From: a virus
Lineage: Duplodnaviria > Heunggongvirae > Uroviricota > Caudoviricetes
DNA: 64,000 nucleotides
IMG/VR virus record: IMGVR_UViG_3300028797_000099
Coordinates: 1-64,000 of that record
Strand: one strand, 5' to 3'
Shown here: one piece after another, positions 16,086-64,000 of the stretch
Layout: each line of letters opens with the position of its first letter
Numbering within the stretch: the stretch's first letter is position 1
The notes under the pieces: generated by a model
Databases searched by the model: none
Told to the model about the DNA's origin: nothing
What the model saw: only the letters and a program-made list of their open reading frames with translations
Made by a program: the position numbers and the translations under genes

Positions 16086-17183
16086 CTAATTCAATCCAAT
16101 TAAATCAGGATGAACAAACTTGCCGTCTTCCTGGATGAGCTGGTCGTCGAACCATACCTTACCGCCACCGTATTCCTTGGTCATGATGAGGACCAAATCC
16201 CAGTGGATAGCAGACTGGTTACCATTGAACGCATCCTGATATGCGTTGCCCGGTGTAAAGTGGATTGAGCCAGCAATCTTCTCGTCGAAGAGGATGTCGC
16301 ACATCGGACGGTTAACCATCTTGTTGAGACCCATGGCGAACTCGCCTACGAAACGGGCTCCCTCATCCGTGTTGAAGATTGCGTCGAGAGCTGCCTGGTC
16401 GCCAGAACCGCACTTGGCTTCGACAATCTTGCCATCTTTAAAGACAAGGCTGATGTTGCTGAACGGCTTCCCGAGATACACGGTAGGCGTGTTGTAGGTG
16501 ATTGTTCCGTTTACGCTGTTCTTGACCGGGGCCGTATATACTTCGCCGTCAGGGATGTTCTTTTCGCCACAGCAAGGAATAGCGGGCAACCCCTCAATGC
16601 TGAAACGCAGGTCGGTTCCCGGTGCGACGATACGGACATTACGGGTCTTGGTCATGAGGTCAGCAAGAGGCTTGGCTGATTTTGCCATCTGAGTGTAATC
16701 CACGAGACAGGCATCGAAGTAGAAGTCCTCGAACGCATCGGTGGACATCTTTGCTTCCTGTGCCATGGCAGCGTTCGGCCAACGGGTGATGCACCACTTG
16801 GTATGGTCAACTCGATAGCGGAGAACGGGCTTCATAATCTGCTTGTACTCCGTGAGGATTTCACTAGGCACATCCGCCATTTCGAACGCATTTTCTGCGC
16901 CACGGACTGCGATGTACGCCTGCATTTCCTTCATGAGTGAAAGTTCGAAATTAGCACGGAATTGCTTGGCTTCCTTTGATGCGTACGTCACGAACTCCCT
17001 TTCCACACTGCTGTCATGGGTACGAACAATGGGTTTAGCACCAAGACCCGTAGCGAGGAAAGTCAACGCCTTCGAAATGCTCGACGGAGTATCGGTACAT
17101 TCAATAAGAATGTGGTCCCCTTTTTTCAAATTAACTGATTCAATGAGACGGTCGGCAAGGTTGAGAACTCTCGTATCAAACAT
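16086..17183 (-). CDS. M29-family aminopeptidase (AmpS/PepS-like)
   Basis: 365 aa. GEVYTAPV, FVGEFAMGLN and SIHFTPGNAY blocks resemble thermophilic aminopeptidase T/S. AAGGAG RBS. Confidence 0.65.
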   Translation of the reverse strand: MFDTRVLNLADRLIESVNLKKGDHILIECTDTPSSISKALTFLATGLGAKPIVRTHDSSVEREFVTYASKEAKQFRANFELSLMKEMQAYIAVRGAENAFEMADVPSEILTEYKQIMKPVLRYRVDHTKWCITRWPNAAMAQEAKMSTDAFEDFYFDACLVDYTQMAKSAKPLADLMTKTRNVRIVAPGTDLRFSIEGLPAIPCCGEKNIPDGEVYTAPVKNSVNGTITYNTPTVYLGKPFSNISLVFKDGKIVEAKCGSGDQAALDAIFNTDEGARFVGEFAMGLNKMVNRPMCDILFDEKIAGSIHFTPGNAYQDAFNGNQSAIHWDLVLIMTKEYGGGKVWFDDQLIQEDGKFVHPDLIGLN

Positions 17184-28082: not shown

Positions 28083-28086
28083 AGGG

Positions 28087-28795: not shown

Positions 28796-30007
28796 TTACT
28801 CCGATGCCTTGAAGTTATATACAGGCTTGATTGTTTCGACAATATCGCAACTGTCCTTGATGTTCTCGATGATTTCCTTTGCTGGCTTGTAAGCCATCGG
28901 GGATTCATCCAAAGTGGATTTATTTACACATGTACTGTAAATGCCACGCATGGACTTCTGGTACGCTTCGAGCGAGATGCTTTCCTTCGCATGAGAGCGT
29001 GACATCTTTCTTCCTGCTCCATGCGGTGCAGAGAAGTTCCAATCAGAGTTTCCCTTGCCCGTGCAAATAAGAGCCCCGTCCCTCATGTTCATAGGAATAA
29101 TCAGGCGTTCGCCTTCCTGTGCGGATACAGCTCCCTTACGGAGAATCATGTGCTTCATGTCGATGTAATTATGCAAGGTGCAGAACTTGTCCACGACATG
29201 CAGACGGAGCGCCCTGACAATCTCTTCAAGCATCGCTTCACGGTTACGTGTTGCAAAGTCCTGTGCCAACGCCATGTCATGCAGATATCCGTCGAACGAC
29301 TTGCCAGTGAGGTAAGACAGTTCCTTCGGGGGAGGGAAATGAGGGATGCTTGCCAACGCTGCGGGAAGCTCGTCTTCACGACCCTCACTCTTATACTTGG
29401 CTATTATGGCACCACGCTGCTGAGTCAGGTCGTTGCATTCGTCGATTGCAACTCCCTGCCAGTAATCACAGGTTGCCAACCCAAGATGTCGGGAACCTGA
29501 GTGGATTACGATGTACAGGTTACCATGAGAATCCTTGTCGCATTCGCAGAAGTGATTGCCTCCGCCCAAACTTCCAAGCGACAACAACTCGGTATATTCC
29601 ATCTTCCCTTCCTTGTAGACAATCATATCCTCGATAGGAAAGTCCTTTGCCATCGAGTGCTTGCTTTCACGATGGGACTTCCCAGACGGAATCCTTTCAC
29701 GGATAACCTTGTCCAATTTATCAAAATCAACCGAACGGTCTTTCAACTTGGCAACAAGCATACCACACCCAATGTCCACCCCGACGAGATTAGGCACAAT
29801 CTTGTCCTTAATCGTCATGGTAGTGCCAACGGTGCAGCCCTTCCCAGCATGCACATCGGGCATGATTCTAACCTGCATGTCCTTAGCCCAGCACTGACAC
29901 ATCATGTTCAACAACTGTGTATATGCATCTGGGTCGATATTGTCGCTGAATACCTTGGCGGTATTAAACCTACCCTGTATATCAATCATAATAAACCTAT
30001 CTACCAA
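28796..30007 (-). CDS. rtcB: RNA-splicing ligase RtcB
   Basis: 403 aa with the diagnostic RtcB motifs MPDVHAGKG, GCGM, GGGNHF and HGAGR. Confidence 0.9.
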   Translation of the reverse strand: MVDRFIMIDIQGRFNTAKVFSDNIDPDAYTQLLNMMCQCWAKDMQVRIMPDVHAGKGCTVGTTMTIKDKIVPNLVGVDIGCGMLVAKLKDRSVDFDKLDKVIRERIPSGKSHRESKHSMAKDFPIEDMIVYKEGKMEYTELLSLGSLGGGNHFCECDKDSHGNLYIVIHSGSRHLGLATCDYWQGVAIDECNDLTQQRGAIIAKYKSEGREDELPAALASIPHFPPPKELSYLTGKSFDGYLHDMALAQDFATRNREAMLEEIVRALRLHVVDKFCTLHNYIDMKHMILRKGAVSAQEGERLIIPMNMRDGALICTGKGNSDWNFSAPHGAGRKMSRSHAKESISLEAYQKSMRGIYSTCVNKSTLDESPMAYKPAKEIIENIKDSCDIVETIKPVYNFKASE

Positions 30008-30353
30008 TCAATTCTTTTTTATAACCATAGGCAATATCAAATGCCTTACCCATCTCAATCGCCGCTCGGATAGCCTTCTTGATGTCATTATCCTTCACAA
30101 CGCAGTCGTACAGATTTCCGAACGCAACTGGACTCGAATACTCCCGGTCACGAGTACGTATTTCACTCCACATGAGTGTATTGCCGTCATTAGTATCCTT
30201 GTCCTTGTAGAAAGACATGTTCAAAACGGTGTTATTGAACGTGATATTCAACATGCTACCGTCAGCAACTACTCCACAGTCAGGCAGATAGTGCATAGCG
30301 AAATCAAGGTCATCCTTCTTGATTCGCAAATATTGAAGATTCCGTCGTGCCAT
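29997..30353 (-). CDS. hypothetical protein
   Basis: Track ORF trimmed to MARRNL (AAAGGAAT RBS). The longer N-terminus would read through the tRNA. Confidence 0.45.
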   Translation of the reverse strand: MARRNLQYLRIKKDDLDFAMHYLPDCGVVADGSMLNITFNNTVLNMSFYKDKDTNDGNTLMWSEIRTRDREYSSPVAFGNLYDCVVKDNDIKKAIRAAIEMGKAFDIAYGYKKELIGR

Positions 30354-30375
30354 AGTATTCCTTTTCAAAAAGTTA

Positions 30376-30449
30376 ATCGGGCAGGTGGGATTCGAACCCA
30401 CACTGAAGGGGGTTTAAACCCCATTCCTCTACCAGTTGGGTTACTACCC
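30376..30449 (-). tRNA. tRNA, anticodon UAA (Leu-type decoding) with short variable loop and imperfect D-stem (atypical)
   Basis: Minus-strand cloverleaf. Acceptor CGGGUAG/CUGCCCG (one G-U). D-loop AACUGGUA. Anticodon stem GGGG/CCCC. Loop UUUAAAC, anticodon UAA. T-arm GUGGG-UUCGAAU-CCCAC. No encoded CCA. 74 nt. Confidence 0.7.
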
Positions 30450-30462
30450 GAACCAATTCAAT

Positions 30463-31611
30463 TTAGTCAGAAAGCAGACGCTTGATTCTGTCACGAGCCC
30501 GCATGAAGTTTTCATGGTAGGTTCCGTTCAGATAAACAACATCTTCTGTGCAGTAGTGCTTACCGAGAATGCTCATCAAGACCTGATACTGCTTCTTCCT
30601 ATCTTCGAAGCTGTTCGTGAGGCAATCCCTGCTTCCGTCCTGCACCCAGCTATCTTTTTTCGGAGGCATAACGAAGATGAGGTCGTATTTCAGGAACTTC
30701 GCATTGGCTTCGATAAGCTTATAGTCGTCTTCGGTGATGGCATACCTGTCATCCATCGAGTAATACTTAGCGTACATGAGCGTTGTCATTGCGTCACTGT
30801 CACAGATGTTGACCTTATGCCAACTTGCCGAGTTGACTCTGTACTGCTCGTTAAGAAAACGAAGGTAGTCATTAAAGGTCAGCTTGGTATCATCAGGCTG
30901 CGGTTCCTTTCCGTTTTGAGCGGCGATGTAAGTGTGACCGTATTCCTCGGTGTACCCAACATCGAAGTATCTGGCAAGGTCTTTCGTGAGCGTGGACTTG
31001 CCTTCCGATGCCGTACCGATAATCAGGACACGCTTGGCGAACTGAGCCTTGAACTCATGCCCAATGATTTCGTCCCAATACTTCATCGGTTCCTTGCGTA
31101 TCTTTGTTGCAGAAATCTGATTGAGCTCTCTCGGCAACAGATACACATTGGGGCCTTTACTGACCAACGACATGATTGCCTGTCTGTACGACGGTTCGCC
31201 AGTAAAGACAGTCGTTTTCTGAAGCAATTTCGTACACTTTCGCTTGCTGACATCAGCATTGCCGTACACGATTTCAGCGAGCTTATCGCTGAGAGCTTCC
31301 AACCATTCAGACCATTTGTCCATGTAACCTGCAATGCCGATATCGTTATCCTTCATCATGACGACGTGAACAAGCGGGTCGCCTTCAAACATCTTCTTGA
31401 TGATTTCATAGCGACGTTCAATCGGAAGACCGATTCTCGTACCACGGTCGCCATCAAGCCCGCAAACGGCAATGATTGCACCCTTAGAGCAGAGCTTCTT
31501 CGCTGCCATTACGAGGTCAAGATGACCTGTATGCATCGGGCTGAAAGACCCGAGGACAACCCCGTATTCACGAGGGCCACCGCTGATTTGGTTAATCACG
31601 TCGTCAAGCAT
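30463..31611 (-). CDS. nadR: bifunctional NMN adenylyltransferase / ribosylnicotinamide kinase (NadR-like, no HTH)
   Basis: N-terminal nucleotidyltransferase motif GSFSPMHTGH (H/TxGH). C-terminal P-loop kinase GTASEGKST. Domain order matches NadR. Confidence 0.75.
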   Translation of the reverse strand: MLDDVINQISGGPREYGVVLGSFSPMHTGHLDLVMAAKKLCSKGAIIAVCGLDGDRGTRIGLPIERRYEIIKKMFEGDPLVHVVMMKDNDIGIAGYMDKWSEWLEALSDKLAEIVYGNADVSKRKCTKLLQKTTVFTGEPSYRQAIMSLVSKGPNVYLLPRELNQISATKIRKEPMKYWDEIIGHEFKAQFAKRVLIIGTASEGKSTLTKDLARYFDVGYTEEYGHTYIAAQNGKEPQPDDTKLTFNDYLRFLNEQYRVNSASWHKVNICDSDAMTTLMYAKYYSMDDRYAITEDDYKLIEANAKFLKYDLIFVMPPKKDSWVQDGSRDCLTNSFEDRKKQYQVLMSILGKHYCTEDVVYLNGTYHENFMRARDRIKRLLSD

Positions 31612-32295
31612 TTAAGCCTCCACAGTGTCTGTTTCAAGCTTCTTCTCGGTATGAGACCATTCGACCCAACCGTAGATGGTGTTGATAAACCAGCAAACAT
31701 ACATCGCCACCATTGCCCATTCGCCAATGAGTGCGAAAGTCACGATGGAAATGCCATCAAGCACAAACCAGAAGAACCACTGTTCACGGTAGCAAGTGAT
31801 AATGAGAATCTGAGCAATGACCGTGAAGCTTATGCTCAACGCATCCATGTACGGAACTGCACCGTCAAGAACAAACTTGTCGAACGTACCGAAGCCAACG
31901 GTAAGAACGATTGTCGCAATAATCGAAATAACCCATGCCTTAGGAGAGAGTCGCTTCGGAATAACGTGCGTTCTGTCCTTTTCGAGCTGCTTGTACCATG
32001 CGTACAAACCATACACCATCGTCACGTTGTAGAAGATATATTCGCCAAATTCAAGCCACAGGCGGCTTTCCCAACAGATGTACATATACATGAAGTTGAA
32101 AACGAAACTCGGTGCGTAAGCCCAGATGTTCTTCTGTGCAAACATCACGGTTGAAATCGTTCCCAGGAGTGCCGTCAGCATGGCAAACCACATTGCGGTA
32201 TGGCCATCAGGCATCATGATGGTGAAGATGATGGTGAAGATGATGAACGCTGTCATGTACAGCGCACGGAATTTATTTTTGATAAAAGACATATT
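31612..32295 (-). CDS. pnuC: nicotinamide riboside transporter PnuC-like membrane protein
   Basis: 227-aa Trp-rich polytopic membrane protein directly upstream of nadR, the classic pnuC-nadR arrangement. Start MSFIKN behind an AAAGAAGG RBS. Confidence 0.55.
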   Translation of the reverse strand, partial: NMSFIKNKFRALYMTAFIIFTIIFTIMMPDGHTAMWFAMLTALLGTISTVMFAQKNIWAYAPSFVFNFMYMYICWESRLWLEFGEYIFYNVTMVYGLYAWYKQLEKDRTHVIPKRLSPKAWVISIIATIVLTVGFGTFDKFVLDGAVPYMDALSISFTVIAQILIITCYREQWFFWFVLDGISIVTFALIGEWAMVAMYVCWFINTIYGWVEWSHTEKKLETDTVEA

Positions 32296-32330
32296 GCCTT
32301 CTTTGTTGATGGTTTTTGTTGTTTGTGAAA

Positions 32331-32359
32331 AATATACTAACTTCATTCCCCTCTGTCAA
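32331..32359 (-). promoter_or_regulatory. promoter TTGACA-17-TATATT driving pnuC-nadR; -35 in CCCC/GGGG hairpin
   Basis: Motif match. Confidence 0.5.
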
Positions 32360-32375
32360 GGGGGTTGCTCGATTT

Positions 32376-33104
32376 TTAACCACCTGCGGGCCAGTCAACG
32401 TAGCACTTACCCTTATTTTTCTTCACATAGGAAATAATCATGCGCTGCATCTGCTTGTACTCCTTGTCACTGCACTCGTCGGTGTTCTGAATAATGACAG
32501 CATCATTGTCAAGGATAAAGGACGCAAGGTCGCAGAAGTCCAAGTAAGAATTGCAGCTGTCATCTACGCTCAGAATAGACAAGTCTGCATTGGGCTCGGT
32601 AATCTTGTCAATCGTCCTGAGCATGTAGCTCATAATGATAGACTGGAAGGATTCATGCCCATAGCATCCGTTCGAAGCCCAATATTTCGGCCCAATGTAT
32701 GCACCGTTTTTCTTGGACTCTACTTTTGTATTCTTGATGGTAAGAGTGATATTCCAGTGCTTCTTGAAGCTCTTCTTCATGTAAGCAATGAACTTGCGAT
32801 ATGCAGCAACAATTTCATCATTGCGCTTGATTTCCTTAGCGGTAATGTTCAGGTAGCCCTTCTTTTTCTCAGACCACTTGCCACAAGTCAACTTGTCGCA
32901 CCAGTATTTCATGATGATTAGGAAGCAGTAGCTAGCCTTTTCTTCAGGCAGCTTCCTTTCGATAAGCGTTCTCTCGCTAAAATCCATCTCACCGTCAATA
33001 CAGACCTTGACGGGTTCCTTGTTGAATACGCTACCCCTCGGGATGACGATTGCGTGCATCGAGGAAGAGTTCGTCTCGAATGTTGATTCTCGTATCGTTT
33101 TCAT
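32376..33104 (-). CDS. hypothetical protein, FETNSSS-motif family (paralog 1 of 4)
   Basis: N-terminus MKTIRESTFETNSSSMHA is shared with 38194-38673, 40169-40882 and 40892-41326. Confidence 0.6.
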   Translation of the reverse strand: MKTIRESTFETNSSSMHAIVIPRGSVFNKEPVKVCIDGEMDFSERTLIERKLPEEKASYCFLIIMKYWCDKLTCGKWSEKKKGYLNITAKEIKRNDEIVAAYRKFIAYMKKSFKKHWNITLTIKNTKVESKKNGAYIGPKYWASNGCYGHESFQSIIMSYMLRTIDKITEPNADLSILSVDDSCNSYLDFCDLASFILDNDAVIIQNTDECSDKEYKQMQRMIISYVKKNKGKCYVDWPAGG

Positions 33105-34685: not shown

Positions 34686-35945
34686 ATGCCAAGCAACAAA
34701 AGACCTACACAAAACGACACCCCGGTCTGCAGCTTCTGCGGACGCCCGATTGAAGAAAACACCCTTGCCGTACGTGGCATGTCCCCGATAGGAGCATTCA
34801 TCTGCTCTGATTGCGCCAAGCTCGCCAGCAACATTATGGATGCAAGAGCAGCACAGCAACAGCAGAATGGTCGCAAGAAAGAGATGCAGCTACCGTCTCC
34901 GCACAAGATTAAGGAACACCTTGACACGTTCGTCATCGGACAGGACAAGGCCAAGGAAGCCCTTTCCATTGCGGTGTACAACCATTACAAGAGACTGGAA
35001 TACAACGAAATCCGCTCAGACGATGATGTGGAAATCGAGAAGTCCAATGTCCTCCTCGTAGGCCCGACGGGCTGCGGAAAGACGATGCTTGCAAGGGCTA
35101 TCGCAAAGATGCTCAATGTCCCGTTCGCCATCGCCGATGCAACCGTCCTGACCGAAGCTGGCTATGTGGGCGAAGATGTGGACAGCATCATTTCCCGCCT
35201 CCTCCAAGCGGCAAACATGGACGAGAAGGAAGCCGAGCACGGCATCATCTTCCTCGACGAAATCGACAAGATTGCAAGGAAGAGTGCCAACCCGTCCATT
35301 ACCAGGGACGTATCGGGCGAAGGCGTACAGCAGGGCCTGTTGAAGCTCCTCGAAGGAACTGAGGCCAAAATCAATCCGCAGGGTGGCAGAAAGCATCCCG
35401 AACAGAAACTGATTACCATTGACACCAGGAACATCCTCTTCATCTGCGGTGGAGCTTTCGAGGGCCTTGACGAAATCATCTCCGAACGTACTGAAAAAGG
35501 CGGCATGGGATTCGGTGCAGCCATCCACACGAGGGAAAAGAAAAGCCTCAGCGAACTGTTCGATAAGTGCGAACCTGATGACCTCGTGAGGTTCGGACTC
35601 ATGCCGGAACTCGTTGGCAGACTTCCCGTTACCGTCGCCCTTGACGAACTCGACGAGGACGCCCTCCGCAGAATCCTGACCGAACCGAAGAACGCTATCA
35701 TCAAGCAGTACACCAAGCTGCTCGAACTCGACGGAATCAAACTTTCGTTCGACGAGGAAGCGCTCGGGGAAATCGCCCGCCTGACCATCGAACGCCATAC
35801 TGGCGCCCGTGGCCTCCGTTCCATCGTCGAAGAGTTGCTCCACGACGCAATGTTCATGGGCCCCGACAGCAAGGAAAAGGAACTCCGCATCACGCAGGAT
35901 ATGGTCATGGAACACTTCCATATCCAAGAGCGGAAAGCTTCCTGA
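34686..35945 (+). CDS. clpX: ATP-dependent Clp protease ATP-binding subunit ClpX
   Basis: N-terminal C4 zinc finger CSFCGR...CSDC. Walker A GPTGCGKT. Walker [10 protein letters not shown]. Sensor and arginine-finger regions. 419 aa. Confidence 0.9.
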
Positions 35946-38751: not shown

Positions 38752-39348
38752 TTAGAACTTTACCGTCGGGGCCACATCAGCGCCAGTAACAGCGGAGAAC
38801 GGCACCTTCGGGGTCACTCCGGCGAATCCCGCCACGAAGACACCGGGGAATGTTCTGACCTTGTTGTTAAGGTTGTTGACTGCCACATTGAACTGGCGTC
38901 TGGACTCGGCGATACGGTTTTCGCATCCTTCAAGCTGAACACGCAGGTCACGAAAAGCGGCGTTAGCCTTCAAGTTCGGATAGTTTTCTGTAACCATCAT
39001 GAGACGCTGCAATGCTCCACCGAGGCTGTTCTGTGCTTCCTGGAACTTCTTCATTGCACGTTCGTCACTGAGCATGCTTTCATCCATCTTAATCACGCCA
39101 CCCATACGGCTACGAGCCTCGATGACTTCGGTGAGCGTACTCTTCTCGAAGTTGGCTTCGCCCTTCACCGTTTCGACGATGTTCGGAATAAGGTCGTAAC
39201 GACGCTGGTACTGGTTTTCGACGTTAGCCCAGCTCATCTGCACACCGTTTTCAAGAGTGCGAAGGGAGTTGAACTGGCCGATGAAAGCGCATCCGCTGAT
39301 AAAGGCGAGCACGACAATGACGATAAGTACGAGTTTACCCGTAGACAT
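38752..39348 (-). CDS. lemA: LemA-family membrane protein
   Basis: N-terminal TM, then the LemA core NSLRTLENGVQMSWANVENQYQRRYDLIPNIVETVKGEANFEKSTL...RQFNVAVNNLNNKVRTFPG. Confidence 0.7.
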   Translation of the reverse strand: MSTGKLVLIVIVVLAFISGCAFIGQFNSLRTLENGVQMSWANVENQYQRRYDLIPNIVETVKGEANFEKSTLTEVIEARSRMGGVIKMDESMLSDERAMKKFQEAQNSLGGALQRLMMVTENYPNLKANAAFRDLRVQLEGCENRIAESRRQFNVAVNNLNNKVRTFPGVFVAGFAGVTPKVPFSAVTGADVAPTVKF

Positions 39349-39385
39349 TTTATACCTCTTTGGTTTAGATTGTTGGTTTTGTTGA

Positions 39386-39415
39386 AAATATAGCATTTAA
39401 CTTGGTGCTTGTCAA
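39386..39415 (-). promoter_or_regulatory. promoter TTGACA-18-TATATT
   Basis: Motif match. Confidence 0.45.
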
Positions 39416-39418
39416 GGG

Positions 39419-40159
39419 CTACCATCCGCCATGACTTCCGCCACCGCCGAAACTGCCTCCGCCGAATCCGCTGCTGCCTCCGCCACCCTTGCCTCCGCCA
39501 AGACATGACAGTATAACGAGAACGGTACTCAACACGGGAATATCAGTGAGCGCCTCGATGATACCAAGTAGGATTAGGACGACGATTACTATGGCTACCA
39601 CGATGGCTACCGTGGTTCCGCTCACCTTCTTTTCATCGGCAGGGGCGAGCTGAGCCGTATCAAGGGTTGCCGTGAGCGTAATCTTCTTCTCTTCTTGGAC
39701 CTTCGTGGCAATCATGCTTGCAAGCTTGATGATGCCCTGACCACCCTCTCCACTCTGCAATGCGGGGATAAGGGAGGTCTGCTGCATATGTTCCACGAGG
39801 ACATCAGGCAAATACCCCTCGGAACCGTAACCCACATGTACGCCTCGGTAGTGCGGGTCCATCACGACATAGATGAATACACCCTCGTTCGAATCCTTGC
39901 TGCAGATTGCCCACTTCTGGGCTACACGCAAACTGAATTGAACCGGGTCTTCACCGTCAATCGTCTTGAATGTCGCCACGGCAAGGCCGAAACGAGCGTT
40001 CTTGGCAAGGTCGGACGCAATCGAATTTAATTGGTAGACCTGGTTTGCCGACATGATTCCCGCCCCGTCGTAAACGAACGAGTTGGTTGGAATCGGTGGG
40101 ACCTCGATGGCCGAAACCAACGAGACAAGTAGCACTAATATGGCTAGGATTTTCTTCAT
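39419..40159 (-). CDS. TPM-domain (YgcG-like) membrane protein with Gly-rich C-terminus
   Basis: Signal peptide, TPM domain, TM helix and a GGGKGGGGSSGFGGGSFGGGGSHGGW tail, typical of the LemA-associated TPM phosphatase family. Confidence 0.65.
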   Translation of the reverse strand: MKKILAILVLLVSLVSAIEVPPIPTNSFVYDGAGIMSANQVYQLNSIASDLAKNARFGLAVATFKTIDGEDPVQFSLRVAQKWAICSKDSNEGVFIYVVMDPHYRGVHVGYGSEGYLPDVLVEHMQQTSLIPALQSGEGGQGIIKLASMIATKVQEEKKITLTATLDTAQLAPADEKKVSGTTVAIVVAIVIVVLILLGIIEALTDIPVLSTVLVILSCLGGGKGGGGSSGFGGGSFGGGGSHGGW

Positions 40160-41327: not shown

Positions 41328-42278
41328 TTACCATCCTTGGGTTGTAACCTGAAGCAGGTCATGAATGTTTTCCTTACCCGTGAACGAGTAACGCTTGTCC
41401 AGAGCTGCGGTGCTCATGCGGGCTACCTGCATGTTCGGAACGTCGATGTACATCGTGGCACAGGTGATGTTCCCGTCAGCATCCTTCACATCCGTGTCGG
41501 AACCCTGGAACAGCGTATTGAAATCCTTGTCAGAGATATTGAGAGCCGTCTTCGGGTCCAACTGTTCTATGCCGAGGCAGTCGAACGACATCACCTTAAA
41601 GGGAAGAATCGAGCGCATCATCATGAATTTCAGCCAGTTGATATTAGCCTTGATTTCATCACTGTGCTTTTCAAGCATGGCATGACCACGACGCAAATCC
41701 TTGTAACCAAGGATAAGCACCTTCCTGTCGCTCAATGCAGGGAGGTCCTTCGCAGTCAAGATGCCCGCAATGGTATGGATTACAACATTGTCGCCGAGCG
41801 TGTCGATGAAGTCGAAGTCTTCCTTGTTGCTGGAATCCGTAAGCGAGATGCCGATACCGTGAACGAGACCGTCGCCCACAATCTTGCAGATGATGTCCTT
41901 GTACGGTTTCAGGTGACGCTGGTTGATTGTGATGTTTGCGATTACACCCTGTTCCTTCAAGCGTTCGAGGAACCAGACGAGGTCAGGATGGGCCAAGGCG
42001 TTGCCACCACCGATAGCGCACTCGGTTCCTGAATGAAGGGTAGCAATCATCGGTTCCAATGCCCTGAGGTCGCCATGCTTGCCATTTACCGTAGAGTTTT
42101 CATGGCAGTAAACGCATCCACCGTCGCACTGGTCGGTAATCTTGATGTCAAAGTTCTCGGGAAAATCATATGTGAAATGGTCGGCCATCGGGTCGAGCGT
42201 TTCCTTGATTTTGGTGCCATCCGAGTAGATGGTCACCATATGGTTGCCGTTTGTATATGTGTTAAGTATCGTTCGCAT
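41328..42278 (-). CDS. radical-SAM enzyme (candidate 7-carboxy-7-deazaguanine synthase QueE-like)
   Basis: CDGGCVYC is the CxxxCxxC radical-SAM cluster motif. It is adjacent to and co-oriented with the QueC-like gene. Confidence 0.5.
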   Translation of the reverse strand: MRTILNTYTNGNHMVTIYSDGTKIKETLDPMADHFTYDFPENFDIKITDQCDGGCVYCHENSTVNGKHGDLRALEPMIATLHSGTECAIGGGNALAHPDLVWFLERLKEQGVIANITINQRHLKPYKDIICKIVGDGLVHGIGISLTDSSNKEDFDFIDTLGDNVVIHTIAGILTAKDLPALSDRKVLILGYKDLRRGHAMLEKHSDEIKANINWLKFMMMRSILPFKVMSFDCLGIEQLDPKTALNISDKDFNTLFQGSDTDVKDADGNITCATMYIDVPNMQVARMSTAALDKRYSFTGKENIHDLLQVTTQGW

Positions 42279-43903: not shown

Positions 43904-44171
43904 AAATCCAAGCCCAATCGTTATCCCAAATGTATTCAATAACTTCTTTTGGAGTGCATAGAATTTCCTGTTCACCATTGCCATCTATGCAGATATAGTT
44001 CTTAGCATCCTCATCGTATATGATTTGACCATCCCCAAATCGAACCACATTACATGCTCGATGAATTGCAATGCCGTATCGCCTATATTTGCCTAATACA
44101 TTCATCAAGGAATCTACACCACGAGCATATCGTGGTGCATTGATTCCATATGTCTTTCTCTGACTACGCAT
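43902..44171 (-). CDS. hypothetical protein
   Basis: 89-aa ORF immediately downstream of glf. Confidence 0.45.
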   Translation of the reverse strand: MRSQRKTYGINAPRYARGVDSLMNVLGKYRRYGIAIHRACNVVRFGDGQIIYDEDAKNYICIDGNGEQEILCTPKEVIEYIWDNDWAWI

Positions 44172-45427
44172 TAGACTAAACCAAAGATGCAGCCGGGTTC
44201 GGCAGGGTGTTCCGTAATCAATCTGTCATCGACCAATGCAGCCTTAATCACGTCGTCCATGTCCATGTACTTGTACAGACCGAGACGGCCAGTAGGGACA
44301 TACTTTTTCGGCAAGTAACCAATTATCTTCTGGTACTTTTCATTCTCGCTTGCAAGAGGATAGTATCGCTCGCACTTGCCACGTTCGTACTTCACAGGGT
44401 ACTCATAAGTAACAAGGGTCTTTTGTTCGTCAAGTTGTTCATTGTTGAAGAACTTGTGCTCAATGCTCCTCGTGTACGCTACTTCTGGCGAAGTGTAGTT
44501 CACAACAGCATTTCCCTGCCAGTTGTCAGTAGGAAGCAGCTTCTCTTCAAACTTCAATGAACGCCAGTCAAGCCAGTAATCTTCAAACCCGTCCTCGTGA
44601 ACAAGTCCAGCAAACAATTTGCTGTCGTTCATCAAAGAGTTCAACAGGTCTGATACATCACCAGAATAGAACACCTGGTCAAACTTGTTCTTGCTCATTC
44701 CATGTACACTGTGGTTGAATATATCTTCGCAGAAATCTTCACCATAGTGAATAGGATGCCCTTCGAACATGTTCTCAATCCATGTGGTATATCCTTCCTC
44801 GGGAATACCCTGATAGATGTCATTGAAGTAGTTGTTGTCGTAGGTGAACCTAAGCGGCAAACGCTTGATTATCCACGGTTCCAACTCTGTGCATGGCTTT
44901 CCCCACTGCTTTTCAGTGTAGTGCTTAATCAACTTTTCATACACGGTAGTTCCAACAAGGGAGATTGCCTGTTCTTCAAGGTTCCTTGGGGATTCAAACG
45001 GATGTTCCTCCTTGTACCGTTTGATTTCGGCTTGAATAATACCTTTCACAATGCTAGGAGACACAATATTCACACCAAGATTCCGTTCGAACAAGCGAAC
45101 AAATGTATTCATGTTGAACGGGAGATTGTAGGTCTCCGATTCCTTACTAGCCTGATTGTAATACACGGCAATCGGACTGTTCACAAAGTTGTTGAACTTA
45201 GCGAACTTGTTCGCAAACTTCCATACAGCAGGGTCAGACGTATGGAAGATATGTGCGCCATACTTGTGAACGGTGATACCTTCTACCTTTTCAGTATAGC
45301 AGTTACCGCCAAGGTGTTTACGCTTCTCGATAATCGTGATGTCTGCCGGATTGACACCAAACTCATTAACGAGTCGCTGATAGATTACTGCATTGTAAAG
45401 GCCCGCACCTACGAACAGATACTTCAT
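44171..45427 (-). CDS. glf: UDP-galactopyranose mutase
   Basis: N-terminal FAD-binding KYLFVGAGLYNAVIYQRL. C-terminal RLGLYKYMDMDDVIKAAL block characteristic of UGM. Confidence 0.7.
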   Translation of the reverse strand: MKYLFVGAGLYNAVIYQRLVNEFGVNPADITIIEKRKHLGGNCYTEKVEGITVHKYGAHIFHTSDPAVWKFANKFAKFNNFVNSPIAVYYNQASKESETYNLPFNMNTFVRLFERNLGVNIVSPSIVKGIIQAEIKRYKEEHPFESPRNLEEQAISLVGTTVYEKLIKHYTEKQWGKPCTELEPWIIKRLPLRFTYDNNYFNDIYQGIPEEGYTTWIENMFEGHPIHYGEDFCEDIFNHSVHGMSKNKFDQVFYSGDVSDLLNSLMNDSKLFAGLVHEDGFEDYWLDWRSLKFEEKLLPTDNWQGNAVVNYTSPEVAYTRSIEHKFFNNEQLDEQKTLVTYEYPVKYERGKCERYYPLASENEKYQKIIGYLPKKYVPTGRLGLYKYMDMDDVIKAALVDDRLITEHPAEPGCIFGLV

Positions 45428-61874: not shown

Positions 61875-62768
61875 TTACAATATAGTATTTACACCCTTTT
61901 CTTTCAAGAGGGCAAAGAACTTTTCTGGCGTAATAATCTTAACGCCGAGCTGTTTTGCCTTCTTGGACTTCGTGGAGGTAGAGTTTTCGTCAGCCTGTAC
62001 GAGATAGTCCAGCTTTGCGCTTACGCTTCCCTTTACCTGTCCACCAAATGTCTTCACAGTGCGTTCAAGGTCGTCACGGTTGTATTCCATAGCTCCCGTG
62101 AAGCAGAACGACATTCCGCCGAGCGCATCCATTTCTACAGGTTTCTTGAAAGTGAATTTGCCCAATTCAAGAACCCCGACGATTTCATCGAGAGCAGCGA
62201 ACATCTGGGTAAACAGATTCATTTTGACATCATATGCGCTAAACCCATTGATTGCTAGCGTGGAGAGTCTTTCCGGGGTATACGAGCTGAATGTAGCCAT
62301 TGTCGAAAGCGGATTTTCATACCATCCGCCGAACAATTCAAGCGTTTCCAATCCAGACAGCTTTGCTTCGGAGAAACCATCAAAGTCAAACATAGACAGG
62401 AACTTGCTCATTGAAATCGGCTTGCTTAACGCAGCAAGCATATTGTTTCGCAACTTAGCCCCGTTTACCTGGCTCTTCATGGCAAGCGAAATGTCGTTTC
62501 CGCCAGACACAGCATCGGAAATCAGCTCAGGAATCTTTTTCATTCCCACTTCGTTGACAAGGGCGGTAACACAACTTTCGCCTGCACCGTCTATTTCCAA
62601 CACGTCGAAGAAGTTGGCAAACTTGTGGACAATCTTCTGCGGGCACGACGGGTTCACGCAGCAAACCATCCCGTTGTCCATTACATTCAACTCTCCGTGG
62701 CATACAGGACATTCCTTAGGGAACGCAATGTTAGATGCCACATATTCTTTGTACTTTTCTGGAACCAT
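61875..62768 (-). CDS. ligA: NAD+-dependent DNA ligase, C-terminal fragment (Zn finger, HhH, BRCT)
   Basis: CPVCHGEL...CVNPSCP zinc finger, helix-hairpin-helix region, and BRCT SFCFTGAMEYNRDDLERTVKTFGGQV...DYLV. The start overlaps the protease stop as TAATG. Confidence 0.7.
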   Translation of the reverse strand: MVPEKYKEYVASNIAFPKECPVCHGELNVMDNGMVCCVNPSCPQKIVHKFANFFDVLEIDGAGESCVTALVNEVGMKKIPELISDAVSGGNDISLAMKSQVNGAKLRNNMLAALSKPISMSKFLSMFDFDGFSEAKLSGLETLELFGGWYENPLSTMATFSSYTPERLSTLAINGFSAYDVKMNLFTQMFAALDEIVGVLELGKFTFKKPVEMDALGGMSFCFTGAMEYNRDDLERTVKTFGGQVKGSVSAKLDYLVQADENSTSTKSKKAKQLGVKIITPEKFFALLKEKGVNTIL

Positions 62769-63436
62769 TATAACTCCCATGCAAGTTTAGCTGACTTGAA
62801 CTCATCCAGCGAGTTCAAGATACTGATGACACATTTTTTAACATTTTTGGTGTTCGGATATTCCGTCACACCGTTTCTTTCAAGCATACGAATAACCTCC
62901 GTAGACTTAACCAAGTTGCTCGTATTGCGTTCTACCGTCGATACCGACCTGCTTACGCCACCAACCCTTCCATCCCTGGTAAAATTGGGCCCGCCGGACA
63001 TTCCAACCTGCAGTAGTCCATTCATGCGATAAAAACTAGGTTCGCCTTCATAGTTGTACAACAAGCGTATATCCATCGGTATAATAGTCGGATTATGCTC
63101 GATAAACGGCTGAGGATAACCATACGCAGTTAGCTTCTCCCCGATAGGCAGTTCCGTATGGGCTAAGCGGCATACCATAGGCAATGAGGTAGGAGTCTCT
63201 TTCAACTTTAACAAGGCAATATCAGACAGCGAGTCGTAATCCACTATACGGACCTGGTAGCAAGTATCATTCTTCATGTCATAATAGCATGCATGTCTAT
63301 AATTCGACACTACATGATATGCAGTCACAATGTACTTGCTGTTTACAAAGAACCCCGTTCCTCCATGCACATCCTCGACAACCTCAGCAAAGGAAGCGCA
63401 AGCGAACAACAAAATGATAGCGAGTAGTTTTTTCAT
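62768..63436 (-). CDS. secreted trypsin-like serine protease (S1 family)
   Basis: Signal peptide. His motif TAYHV, Asp DIALLKL, Ser GMSGGP. Confidence 0.7.
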   Translation of the reverse strand: MKKLLAIILLFACASFAEVVEDVHGGTGFFVNSKYIVTAYHVVSNYRHACYYDMKNDTCYQVRIVDYDSLSDIALLKLKETPTSLPMVCRLAHTELPIGEKLTAYGYPQPFIEHNPTIIPMDIRLLYNYEGEPSFYRMNGLLQVGMSGGPNFTRDGRVGGVSRSVSTVERNTSNLVKSTEVIRMLERNGVTEYPNTKNVKKCVISILNSLDEFKSAKLAWEL

Positions 63437-63462
63437 GATGTTACCTCTTTGTTTACACCTAA

Positions 63463-63491
63463 AATATACCTAATTAAATGTTTCCCGGCAA
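63463..63491 (-). promoter_or_regulatory. promoter TTGCCG-17-TATATT inside the split ligA locus
   Basis: Drives the protease gene and the ligA C-terminal fragment. Confidence 0.45.
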
Positions 63492-63508
63492 CACCTTTAA
63501 TGTAAAAT

Positions 63509-64000
63509 TTAATTTACAACCTTATCGACCTGCGGAATCACTTCGCCGTGACGGGAGATTTCCACCTTGCAACCAATCTGAATACCCATCTGCATCATCT
63601 TGTTCAAGTTCGAGAGGGAAGCTCGTTCGACAGTCACCCCGTCAAGCTCGGTCGGAACCAAGATGGCAACAGGGGAGAGATAACGACCCTTGCAGCTCCA
63701 TTCTATTCCAATTAGAGTTGTAATCGCCGTTTCCAGCTCGAACTTCACAGCACACTGAGTCATCGGGGTCTTTCTACGGAGGTCGTCATAGTCGATGTCG
63801 TTAATCTTGACGACAATGCCGTCGCAACCATAGTCGATAGTCTTCTTGCGGCTTGCATACACCTTTTCACGGAACGCATTTACCTGTTCGAGGGTATCGA
63901 CCAGCTCGTACATCGGGACTTCAAATCCGCAGGATTCGAGCCACTGCATCTTTTCCAGCTCGGTCTTGAACTGGGTCGGAGCCCTGTTAAGAACATCGTA
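63509..64000 (-). CDS. ligA: NAD+-dependent DNA ligase, N-terminal fragment (adenylation/OB domains; 5' end outside window)
   Basis: DGIVVKIND, AVKFELE and GEVIPQVDKVV match the end of the LigA NTase and OB-fold domains. The ORF runs off the window edge. Confidence 0.65.
   Translation of the reverse strand, partial: YDVLNRAPTQFKTELEKMQWLESCGFEVPMYELVDTLEQVNAFREKVYASRKKTIDYGCDGIVVKINDIDYDDLRRKTPMTQCAVKFELETAITTLIGIEWSCKGRYLSPVAILVPTELDGVTVERASLSNLNKMMQMGIQIGCKVEISRHGEVIPQVDKVVN

Follow-up and report, generated by a model that had tools for sequence, protein, structure and literature searches.

A divergent, predicted NARP3-type pnuC-nadR cassette in a metagenomic phage genome of about 420 kb

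The pnuC-nadR pair and its two products

In the stretch of 64,000 nucleotides analysed here (the window; positions 1 to 64,000 of IMG/VR virus record IMGVR_UViG_3300028797_000099), two adjacent genes on the minus strand encode a transporter of the Pnu family and an enzyme resembling NadR. The pair would supply nicotinamide adenine dinucleotide (NAD+) from imported nicotinamide riboside (NR) by way of nicotinamide mononucleotide (NMN), and it is a divergent example of NARP3, a phage system that has already been published. The genes and the signals in front of them are arranged as follows.

32331-32359, minus strand: sigma-70-type promoter TTGACA-N17-TATATT, 5' of pnuC, with 11 of 12 consensus positions
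32297-32302, minus strand: AGAAGG, a Shine-Dalgarno-like sequence 4 nucleotides 5' of the pnuC ATG, read from the sequence
31612-32292, minus strand: pnuC, 226 amino acids, a Pnu-family transporter with 8 helices and NR as its predicted substrate
31617-31621, minus strand: GGAGG, the ribosome-binding site of nadR, within the 3' end of pnuC and 5 nucleotides 5' of the nadR ATG
30463-31611, minus strand: nadR-like gene, 382 amino acids, a bifunctional NMN adenylyltransferase (NMNAT) and ribosylnicotinamide kinase (RNK) without the helix-turn-helix (HTH) domain, assigned from family and PDB matches

The two-domain organization of the NadR-like protein is apparent from family models. Pfam CTP_transf_like covers residues 19-172 (E-value 6e-6) and AAA_28 covers residues 194-352 (E-value 6e-21), while the protein matches phrog_3462, 'nicotinamide-nucleotide adenylyltransferase', with an E-value of 8e-62 and the TIGR01526 model nadR_NMN_Atrans with an E-value of 2e-53 over model positions 2-317 of 325. 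Against NF005988, a model of NadR of the E. coli type, the alignment begins at model position 64 of 411, and just 15 residues precede the NMNAT core of the window protein. The HTH is therefore absent. The NadR of L. lactis is likewise devoid of an HTH, and its Walker A, Walker B and lid have been defined (PMC7221760); alignment to this protein placed the three segments in the window enzyme.

31087-31569, minus strand: NMNAT domain, about residues 15-175, with HxGH (H27, H30) and ISATKIR
31522-31551, minus strand: GSFSPMHTGH, the HxGH region, residues 21-30
31096-31116, minus strand: ISATKIR, residues 166-172
30466-31044, minus strand: RNK P-loop kinase domain, about residues 190-382, including the invariant E223
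30991-31017, minus strand: Walker A, GTASEGKST, residues 199-207
30790-30807, minus strand: Walker B, ICDSDA
30628-30648, minus strand: lid, WVQDGSR

An alignment of 63 homologues defined the invariant residues of the NMNAT domain (G17, G21, P25, H27, G29, H30, R67, W100, Y142 and R172) and of the RNK domain (G199, T200, S202, G204, K205, E223, D271, T277, P317, D325, R328 and R338), and all of them are present in the window protein. The motifs, which might have turned out to be inactive, thus retain by sequence every catalytic residue that is invariant in the family.

Among solved structures the best match is L. lactis NadR (6GYE, E-value 1.8e-39), followed by the phage enzyme Bas30_86 (9X6F, E-value 3.3e-22) and by NadR from E. 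coli (8X7F, E-value 4e-20) and from H. influenzae (1LW7, E-value 9e-19). The AlphaFold2 model of the protein has a pLDDT (per-residue model confidence) of 89.6 and superimposes on the full-length NadR structures 6GYE/6GZO with template modelling (TM) scores of 0.74-0.79. In a Foldseek search with this model the top 8 matches were all NadR (6GZO, 6GYF, 6GYE, 1LW7, 8X7F; TM 0.69-0.79), and they were followed by single-domain kinases with TM scores below 0.4. The original prediction had read a NadR architecture without HTH from the motifs GSFSPMHTGH and GTASEGKST, and had proposed a check by AlphaFold and Foldseek. Both motifs are in place, and the family models and the full-length fold bear this architecture out.

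The upstream gene product had been described as a Trp-rich membrane protein, which agrees with its 12 Trp among 226 residues. It matches the Pfam family NMN_transporter (PF04973; E-value 4.5e-38, 131.4 bits for a threshold of 27.3), the PnuC equivalog TIGR01528 (96.9 bits for a cut-off of 42.45) and phrog_1880 (E-value 1e-36), and it is similar in sequence to the PnuC of N. mucosa (4QTN, E-value 2e-14). Its AlphaFold model contains eight helices (pLDDT 80), and its sole fold match is again 4QTN (TM 0.75, E-value 1e-9), so the structural comparison with PnuC gave the expected similarity. The Pnu fold consists of a seven-transmembrane core with an optional N-terminal transmembrane helix, and its ligand-binding motif is WxxW(x)3D/N (PMC5749112); gate tryptophans are a further trait. 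The corresponding segment of the window protein, WFFWFVLD (31756-31779, minus strand; residues 172-179), contributes W172, W175 and D179 and does not vary within the clade; W99 and W209/W212 are likewise invariant. The NR contacts of N. mucosa PnuC are Q124, Q196, N214 and Y242 (numbering of PMC13464706). In our alignment they map to M92, Q161, D179 and W201, which amounts to one identical, two conservative and one non-conservative position.

The pnuC TAA (31612-31614) and the nadR ATG (31609-31611) directly abut. Because of these abutting stop and start codons and of the internal GGAGG that precedes nadR, our data suggest that the two genes are translationally coupled. An abutting or overlapping pnuC-nadR junction is also found in three homologous cassettes (L007, L008 and L009). 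The start of pnuC is the ATG at 32292-32290. It had been placed at 32295, where the codon is AAT, so that the gene, its strand and its 3' limit were correct and its start was one codon off. The counterpart of the AGAAGG in front of this ATG is kept as AAAGAAGG in relatives L002-L004. We rejected a longer pnuC frame of 244 amino acids that would begin at an ATG at 32346: this codon lies inside the promoter spacer with a GGGG run just 1 nucleotide upstream, and it is absent from the IMG/VR relative L004, in which the frame comprises 226 amino acids; homologues have 217-234. The 5' untranslated region of pnuC measures just about 30 nucleotides. No NAD+ riboswitch (pnuC motif) or other RNA element was detected 5' of pnuC by Rfam, whose single finding in the whole window was the tRNA.

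On the plus strand, an open frame of 572 codons (30436-32154) runs antisense to nadR and pnuC and is codon-aligned with both. We rejected it as a gene. It is interrupted in relative L004, and it is a shadow frame that stays open because nadR and pnuC are free of TTA and CTA codons and the one TCA that they contain falls outside it. At the window-wide frequency of TTA, CTA and TCA codons (1.2%), 6.7 stops would be expected in it (P about 0.001). A naive gene caller would choose this shadow frame over the real nadR and pnuC.

Promoter class and transcription unit

The promoter of the pair belongs to a class that recurs throughout the window. Sites of the form TTGACA-N17-TATATT matching at 11 or more of the 12 positions occur 21 times in the 64 kb, compared with 1.2 ± 1.0 times in shuffled sequences, a 17-fold excess. 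The TATATT -10 element is identical in 19 of the 21 sites, and the sites often show a C-rich stretch before the -35 element and TTTAATT in the spacer.

Promoter-class sites, minus strand: 3885, 7692, 10944, 11809, 13772, 18904, 21778, 25811, 28083, 32359, 34601, 37470, 38722, 39415, 43319, 49064
Promoter-class sites, plus strand: 23594, 24389, 47218, 52884, 56471

The -35 and -10 elements of the pnuC promoter are kept in relatives L003 and L004, while its spacer varies. This promoter is conserved in relatives and is one of 21 near-identical sites; the pnuC-nadR pair is thus tied to a promoter class that is phage-wide and that a sigma-70-type polymerase could recognise, in support of the phage promoter anticipated at 32331-32359. 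The class looks phage-specific and read by a sigma-70-type polymerase, and its TTGACA/TATATT elements argue against a host among Bacteroidota and for one whose promoters are of the canonical -35/-10 type.

Downstream of the pair, the following features were identified.

30376-30451, minus strand: tRNA-Leu(UAA), 11 nucleotides 3' of the nadR stop (ARAGORN; Rfam 47.2 bits)
28796-30007, same strand as the cassette: RtcB RNA ligase of phage type (phrog_1075, E-value 4.5e-132; 52% identity to a Bacillus phage RtcB)
26814-27761: SPFH/Band-7 gene, about 2.7 kb downstream of the cassette

No terminator-like site was found on the minus strand between 32331 and 26690, the first one lying at 26690-26664. 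Transcription thus probably runs on through the tRNA-Leu(UAA), a small open reading frame (ORF), rtcB and beyond. The tRNA is probably co-transcribed with the cassette, as context and not as part of the pathway. TTA codons are rare in the genes of the window (0.32%). Together, the tRNA-Leu(UAA) and RtcB could constitute a tRNA repair or replacement function co-transcribed with the NAD+ cassette. In a broader version of this idea, the cassette would head one long unit (pnuC, nadR, tRNA-Leu(UAA), orf118, rtcB, two small ORFs, the internal promoter at 28083, a small ORF and the SPFH gene) that combines NAD+ restoration with tRNA repair, as a 'damage-repair' operon directed against NADase and anticodon-nuclease defences; we consider such an operon rather unlikely. 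Phage bastian, which is T5-like, has two SPFH ORFs directly 5' of its nadR-pnuC pair (L005, 1286-2229), again among tRNA genes. The presence of SPFH genes near the NAD+ cassette in both phages may be a coincidence or a recurrent association.

Genome context and relatives of the cassette

An identical NadR-like protein is encoded on the JGI metagenome contig Ga0394155_0000002 of 422,009 bp, in which the window corresponds to about 51.9-115.9 kb. Proteins with 89-90% identity are found on IMG/VR viral genomes (UViGs) of 419,423 and 174,804 bp, where the genes around them are ordered as in the window, the neighbourhood in L004 is syntenic with the window, and further relatives are located on contigs of 216-475 kb. 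A megablast search of positions 30000-33000 against 50,697 phage records returned no relative at the DNA level, so that protein-level searches alone were informative. The window consists mostly of short ORFans, and ten of these searched against PHROGs gave just two matches, both to PHROGs of unknown function. Several genes of cellular type, unusual for phages, are also present:

16086-17183: M29 aminopeptidase
34686-35945: complete ClpX with its zinc finger
38752-40159: LemA-TPM pair
41328-42278: radical-SAM protein
44171-45427: UDP-galactopyranose mutase

The UDP-galactopyranose mutase gene adjoins glycosyltransferase genes.

The right end of the window encodes an NAD+-dependent DNA ligase, LigA, in two parts.

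61875-62780: Zn-finger/HhH/BRCT part of LigA, 301 amino acids
62768-63436: trypsin-like serine protease ORF, 222 amino acids with a signal peptide, a separate gene between the LigA halves
63509 to beyond the window end: adenylation and OB part of LigA, 447 amino acids in the full contig

LigA is thus split at a domain boundary around the protease ORF, and three independent assemblies (L013-L015) show the same layout. A single LigA gene had been predicted over 61875-64000: the parts of an NAD+-dependent ligase are indeed there, while the protease ORF parts them into two genes. Stop-codon recoding does not account for the break, as the gap is occupied by a separate ORF that is read in a different frame and encodes a signal peptide and a trypsin domain, and the flanks are clean domain-boundary halves, identical in the three assemblies.

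The two genes of the cassette stay together across wide distances. The pnuC-nadR unit is intact in homologues at 68%, 62% and 46% identity, though the flanking genes are unrelated to those of the window. A NUMOD4 homing-endonuclease-like ORF (L007, 3038-3478) lies near one such pair, and an IS605 OrfB/TnpB gene (Cas12f-like; L008, 739-2028) near another. The differing neighbourhoods and the adjoining mobile-element genes fit a movement of the cassette as a unit. More distant homologues (35-37% identity) have the opposite order, nadR then pnuC, as do Lak megaphages and T5-like phages, and a bacterial homologue lacks a neighbouring pnuC. On a short metagenomic contig (37% identity; L012, 932-6065), nadR and pnuC are followed by genes for a nicotinamidase-like isochorismatase, a PRPP-synthase-like protein (phosphoribosyl pyrophosphate, PRPP), a NAMPT/NAPRTase and an NAD synthase, a cluster that joins several NAD+ salvage routes in one block. 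In curated phage genomes, NadR-like proteins occur in 441 records and PnuC-like proteins in 316, and the hosts of these phages include Salmonella, Klebsiella, Escherichia, Bacillus, Lactobacillus and Prevotella (Lak).

Proposed role and relation to known NAD+ systems

Phage NadR was listed in 2022 among the NAD+ salvage enzymes that counter NADase effectors (Iyer et al.; PMC9503650). Osterman et al. (2024) then noted that phage nadR usually forms an operon with pnuC, possibly as 'yet another pathway' beside NARP1 and NARP2. In a 2024 Microbiome study of 174 NAD-encoding gut jumbo phages, pnuC was present in 68/174 and an NAD+-dependent ligase in 90/174, and the authors interpreted NAD+ synthesis combined with such a ligase as an independent supply-and-use system (PMC11662467). 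Finally, Yan et al. (Sci Adv 2026; PMC13464706) characterized Bas30_86 (NadR-like) and Bas30_87 (PnuC-like) of the T5-like Escherichia phage TrudiRoth and named the pair NARP3. Bas30_87 binds NR and Bas30_86 converts NR to NMN and then to NAD+ (structures 9X6H/9X6F); together they rescue phages from Sir2-HerA 10^3- to 10^4-fold and are active against DSR1 (PMC13464706). The novelty implied in the original prediction therefore does not hold: the route was proposed in 2024 and demonstrated in 2026. Its distinction from the precursor routes of NARP1 and NARP2 was correctly drawn, as this same NR route was shown for the homologous Bas30_86/87 (PMC13464706).

For the comparison with NARP3, the genes equivalent to Bas30_86/87 were taken from Salmonella phage bastian, whose NadR-like protein agrees with Bas30_86 at all 308 residues compared (100% identity); all residues numbered in the NARP3 paper for Bas30_86/87 match the bastian proteins. 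A phmmer search aligned the window enzyme with Bas30_86 (9X6F) over residues 16-342 (E-value 3.3e-22). Each system is a two-gene phage cassette for a PnuC-type transporter and an NMNAT-RNK enzyme that lacks the HTH, with the two genes co-oriented and closely coupled. The HxGH (TRGH in Bas30_86), ISAT-x-IR, Walker A/B and DGxR lid segments align, and each cassette has tRNA genes around it and an SPFH gene nearby. They differ in gene order, which is pnuC-nadR in the window and nadR-pnuC in T5-like phages, and in the nucleotidyltransferase motif, which is a canonical H-x-G-H (HTGH) in the window enzyme and T-R-G-H in Bas30_86. They also differ in their setting, a metagenomic phage of about 420 kb as opposed to an Enterobacteriaceae phage of 110 kb.

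The closest curated phage homologues are those of the Lak megaphages (Prevotella phage Lak-A/B/C), with 34-35% identity for NadR and 33-37% for PnuC and with the two genes adjacent. Lak genomes are of like size (over 400 kb) and come from animal guts, and they share with the window the Walker A sequence GTASEGKST and a PnuC with Met and Asp at the positions of M92 and D179 (the M/D variant). In contrast, their gene order is nadR then pnuC, their base composition and sequence differ strongly, no match exists at the DNA level, and the Lak pair is unannotated. Bacterial NR salvage, represented by PnuC 4QTN and the NadR structures 6GYE, 1LW7 and 8X7F, uses the same folds and catalytic motifs, also with an HTH-less NadR in L. 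lactis, and operates by facilitated diffusion and metabolic trapping (PMC5749112). In E. coli, pnuC and nadR are not linked to each other and the NadR protein includes a regulatory HTH, whereas the window pair is one coupled unit under a phage promoter in a viral genome. NARP2 (NAMPT plus NMNAT/Nudix, as NadV/NatV of Vibrio phage KVP40) and NARP1 (Adps plus Namat) likewise rebuild NAD+ with phage-encoded enzymes, and the final step of NARP2 is also catalysed by an HxGH NMN adenylyltransferase. The precursors differ: nicotinamide and PRPP for NARP2, ADP-ribose and nicotinamide for NARP1, and NR imported by a dedicated transporter for the window cassette. Domain annotation of the window ORFs revealed no NAMPT, Nudix or Adps/Namat genes.

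From the genes, their domains, motifs and folds, the operon layout, the promoter class and the conservation of the pair, we infer the substrate, the activity and the counter-defence benefit as follows. Host RNA polymerase would transcribe the cassette from the phage-consensus sigma-70-type promoter. PnuC, judging from its family membership and fold, would reside in the host inner membrane and let external NR diffuse into the cell, where the coupled NadR-like enzyme would trap it as NMN through its C-terminal P-loop kinase domain. The N-terminal HxGH domain would then couple NMN with the AMP part of ATP, yielding NAD+, as its intact catalytic residues and the full-length similarity to NadR lead us to expect. 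By analogy with Bas30_86/87, replication would proceed in cells that lose NAD+ to Sir2, TIR or similar effectors, and the NAD+ made would also serve the NAD+-dependent ligase that the phage itself encodes. Because the enzyme lacks the HTH, this supply would be independent of host regulation. We thus think it likely that the pair is a NARP3-type NAD+ reconstitution cassette of a phage of about 420 kb, which provides an NR-fed and regulation-free supply of NAD+ both for surviving NAD+-depleting defence and for feeding NAD+-dependent enzymes of the phage. The biochemical reading of the original prediction (NR import by PnuC, then NR to NMN to NAD+) is supported by the family models, the structure matches and the intact invariant residues. 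Its counter-defence role was demonstrated for the homologous Bas30_86/87 (PMC13464706) and is predicted by homology for the window cassette.

Several observations weigh against this interpretation. The identity of the window pair to Bas30_86/87 is low, and that to the closest curated phage homologues, those of Lak, reaches just 33-37%. On TIGR01526 the NadR-like protein scores 181.8 bits, under the equivalog cut-off of 341.15; judged by its sequence, it is a divergent member of the NadR family. Among the residues mutated in Bas30_86 (K10, F11, S37, E80, P84, G89, F110, S112, D115, E230, D275 and others), only F11, F110, I141 and D275 are identical in the window enzyme and the rest differ (S22, C50, D88, A94, K99, G138, S141, N260); since these positions are mostly variable across 97 homologues, they are uninformative as a test of membership. 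The NR-coordinating triad of Bas30_87, N45/Q94/N180, aligns to G44, M92 and D179 in the window PnuC, of which D179 still fits WxxW(x)3D/N, and N. mucosa PnuC likewise has Gly at the first position of the triad. NARP3 itself was tested by plasmid expression only, outside its native phage. Lastly, no phage hallmark or structural gene was found in the 64-kb window by Pfam on 30 ORFs and PHROGs on 10 ORFans.

The TIGR01526 score below the cut-off, and the Met that replaces the Gln contact of both Bas30_87 and N. mucosa PnuC, would fit a transporter that imports nicotinic acid riboside, NMN or a thiamine-like compound which the kinase then phosphorylates. Carriers of thiamine and of riboflavin belong to the Pnu transporters too, and PnuT has WxxW(x)3D/N in its Asp form (PMC5749112), as does the window protein. 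We regard such a change of substrate for the cassette as improbable, given that the score on the PnuC equivalog TIGR01528 is more than twice the cut-off, that the operon partner keeps all NMNAT and RNK invariants, and that the Lak PnuC with the same M/D variant also adjoins nadR. On these sequence grounds NR is the likely substrate of the window PnuC; for the M92/D179 variant common to Lak phages, import of a precursor other than NR is an unlikely alternative. The lack of capsid, terminase and tail genes in the window, together with its cellular-looking ClpX, LemA/TPM, M29 peptidase, SPFH and UDP-galactopyranose mutase genes, would suit a bacterial chromosome, a megaplasmid or a large extrachromosomal element carrying ordinary cellular NR salvage. 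We hold this origin to be very improbable. The near-identical relatives appear in IMG/VR as viral genomes (419 and 175 kb), short ORFans are in the majority, one stereotyped promoter occurs 21 times, RtcB belongs to the phage family phrog_1075 (E-value 4.5e-132) with 52% identity to a Bacillus phage protein, Lak megaphages provide the best curated matches for both genes, and ribosomal or other core cellular genes were not seen in the window. The phage assignment is thus well supported by the IMG/VR relatives, the contig size, the ORFan density, the promoter class and the phage-type RtcB, while it is not proven from the window alone.

A purely metabolic module is possible, with a clearly lower probability than a cassette that also serves counter-defence. 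It would raise NAD+ for the NAD+-dependent enzymes of the phage (the split LigA, sugar-nucleotide enzymes) and for host energy metabolism, whether or not a NADase defence is triggered. The same genome does encode an NAD+-dependent ligase, and gut jumbo phages often pair NAD+ synthesis genes with such a ligase (PMC11662467). The homologous cassette, however, rescues from Sir2-HerA and DSR1 by 10^3- to 10^4-fold. The metabolic and counter-defence roles are moreover compatible, and they differ in emphasis and not in mechanism.

The window cassette is therefore best described as a divergent example of NARP3, a system whose mechanism and anti-defence role are in the literature, and for this reason it opens no new question. 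A BLAST survey in the paper defining NARP3 had suggested that the system is confined to T5-like Enterobacteriaceae phages (PMC13464706). Our analysis indicates that the strategy reaches beyond them, to a clade of metagenomic phages of about 400 kb and more that carries an intact version in reversed order, under a consensus promoter of the phage itself. This distant pair of homologues is useful for finding which residues really set NR transport and catalysis, and its occurrence supports the idea that phages widely need to restore NAD+.

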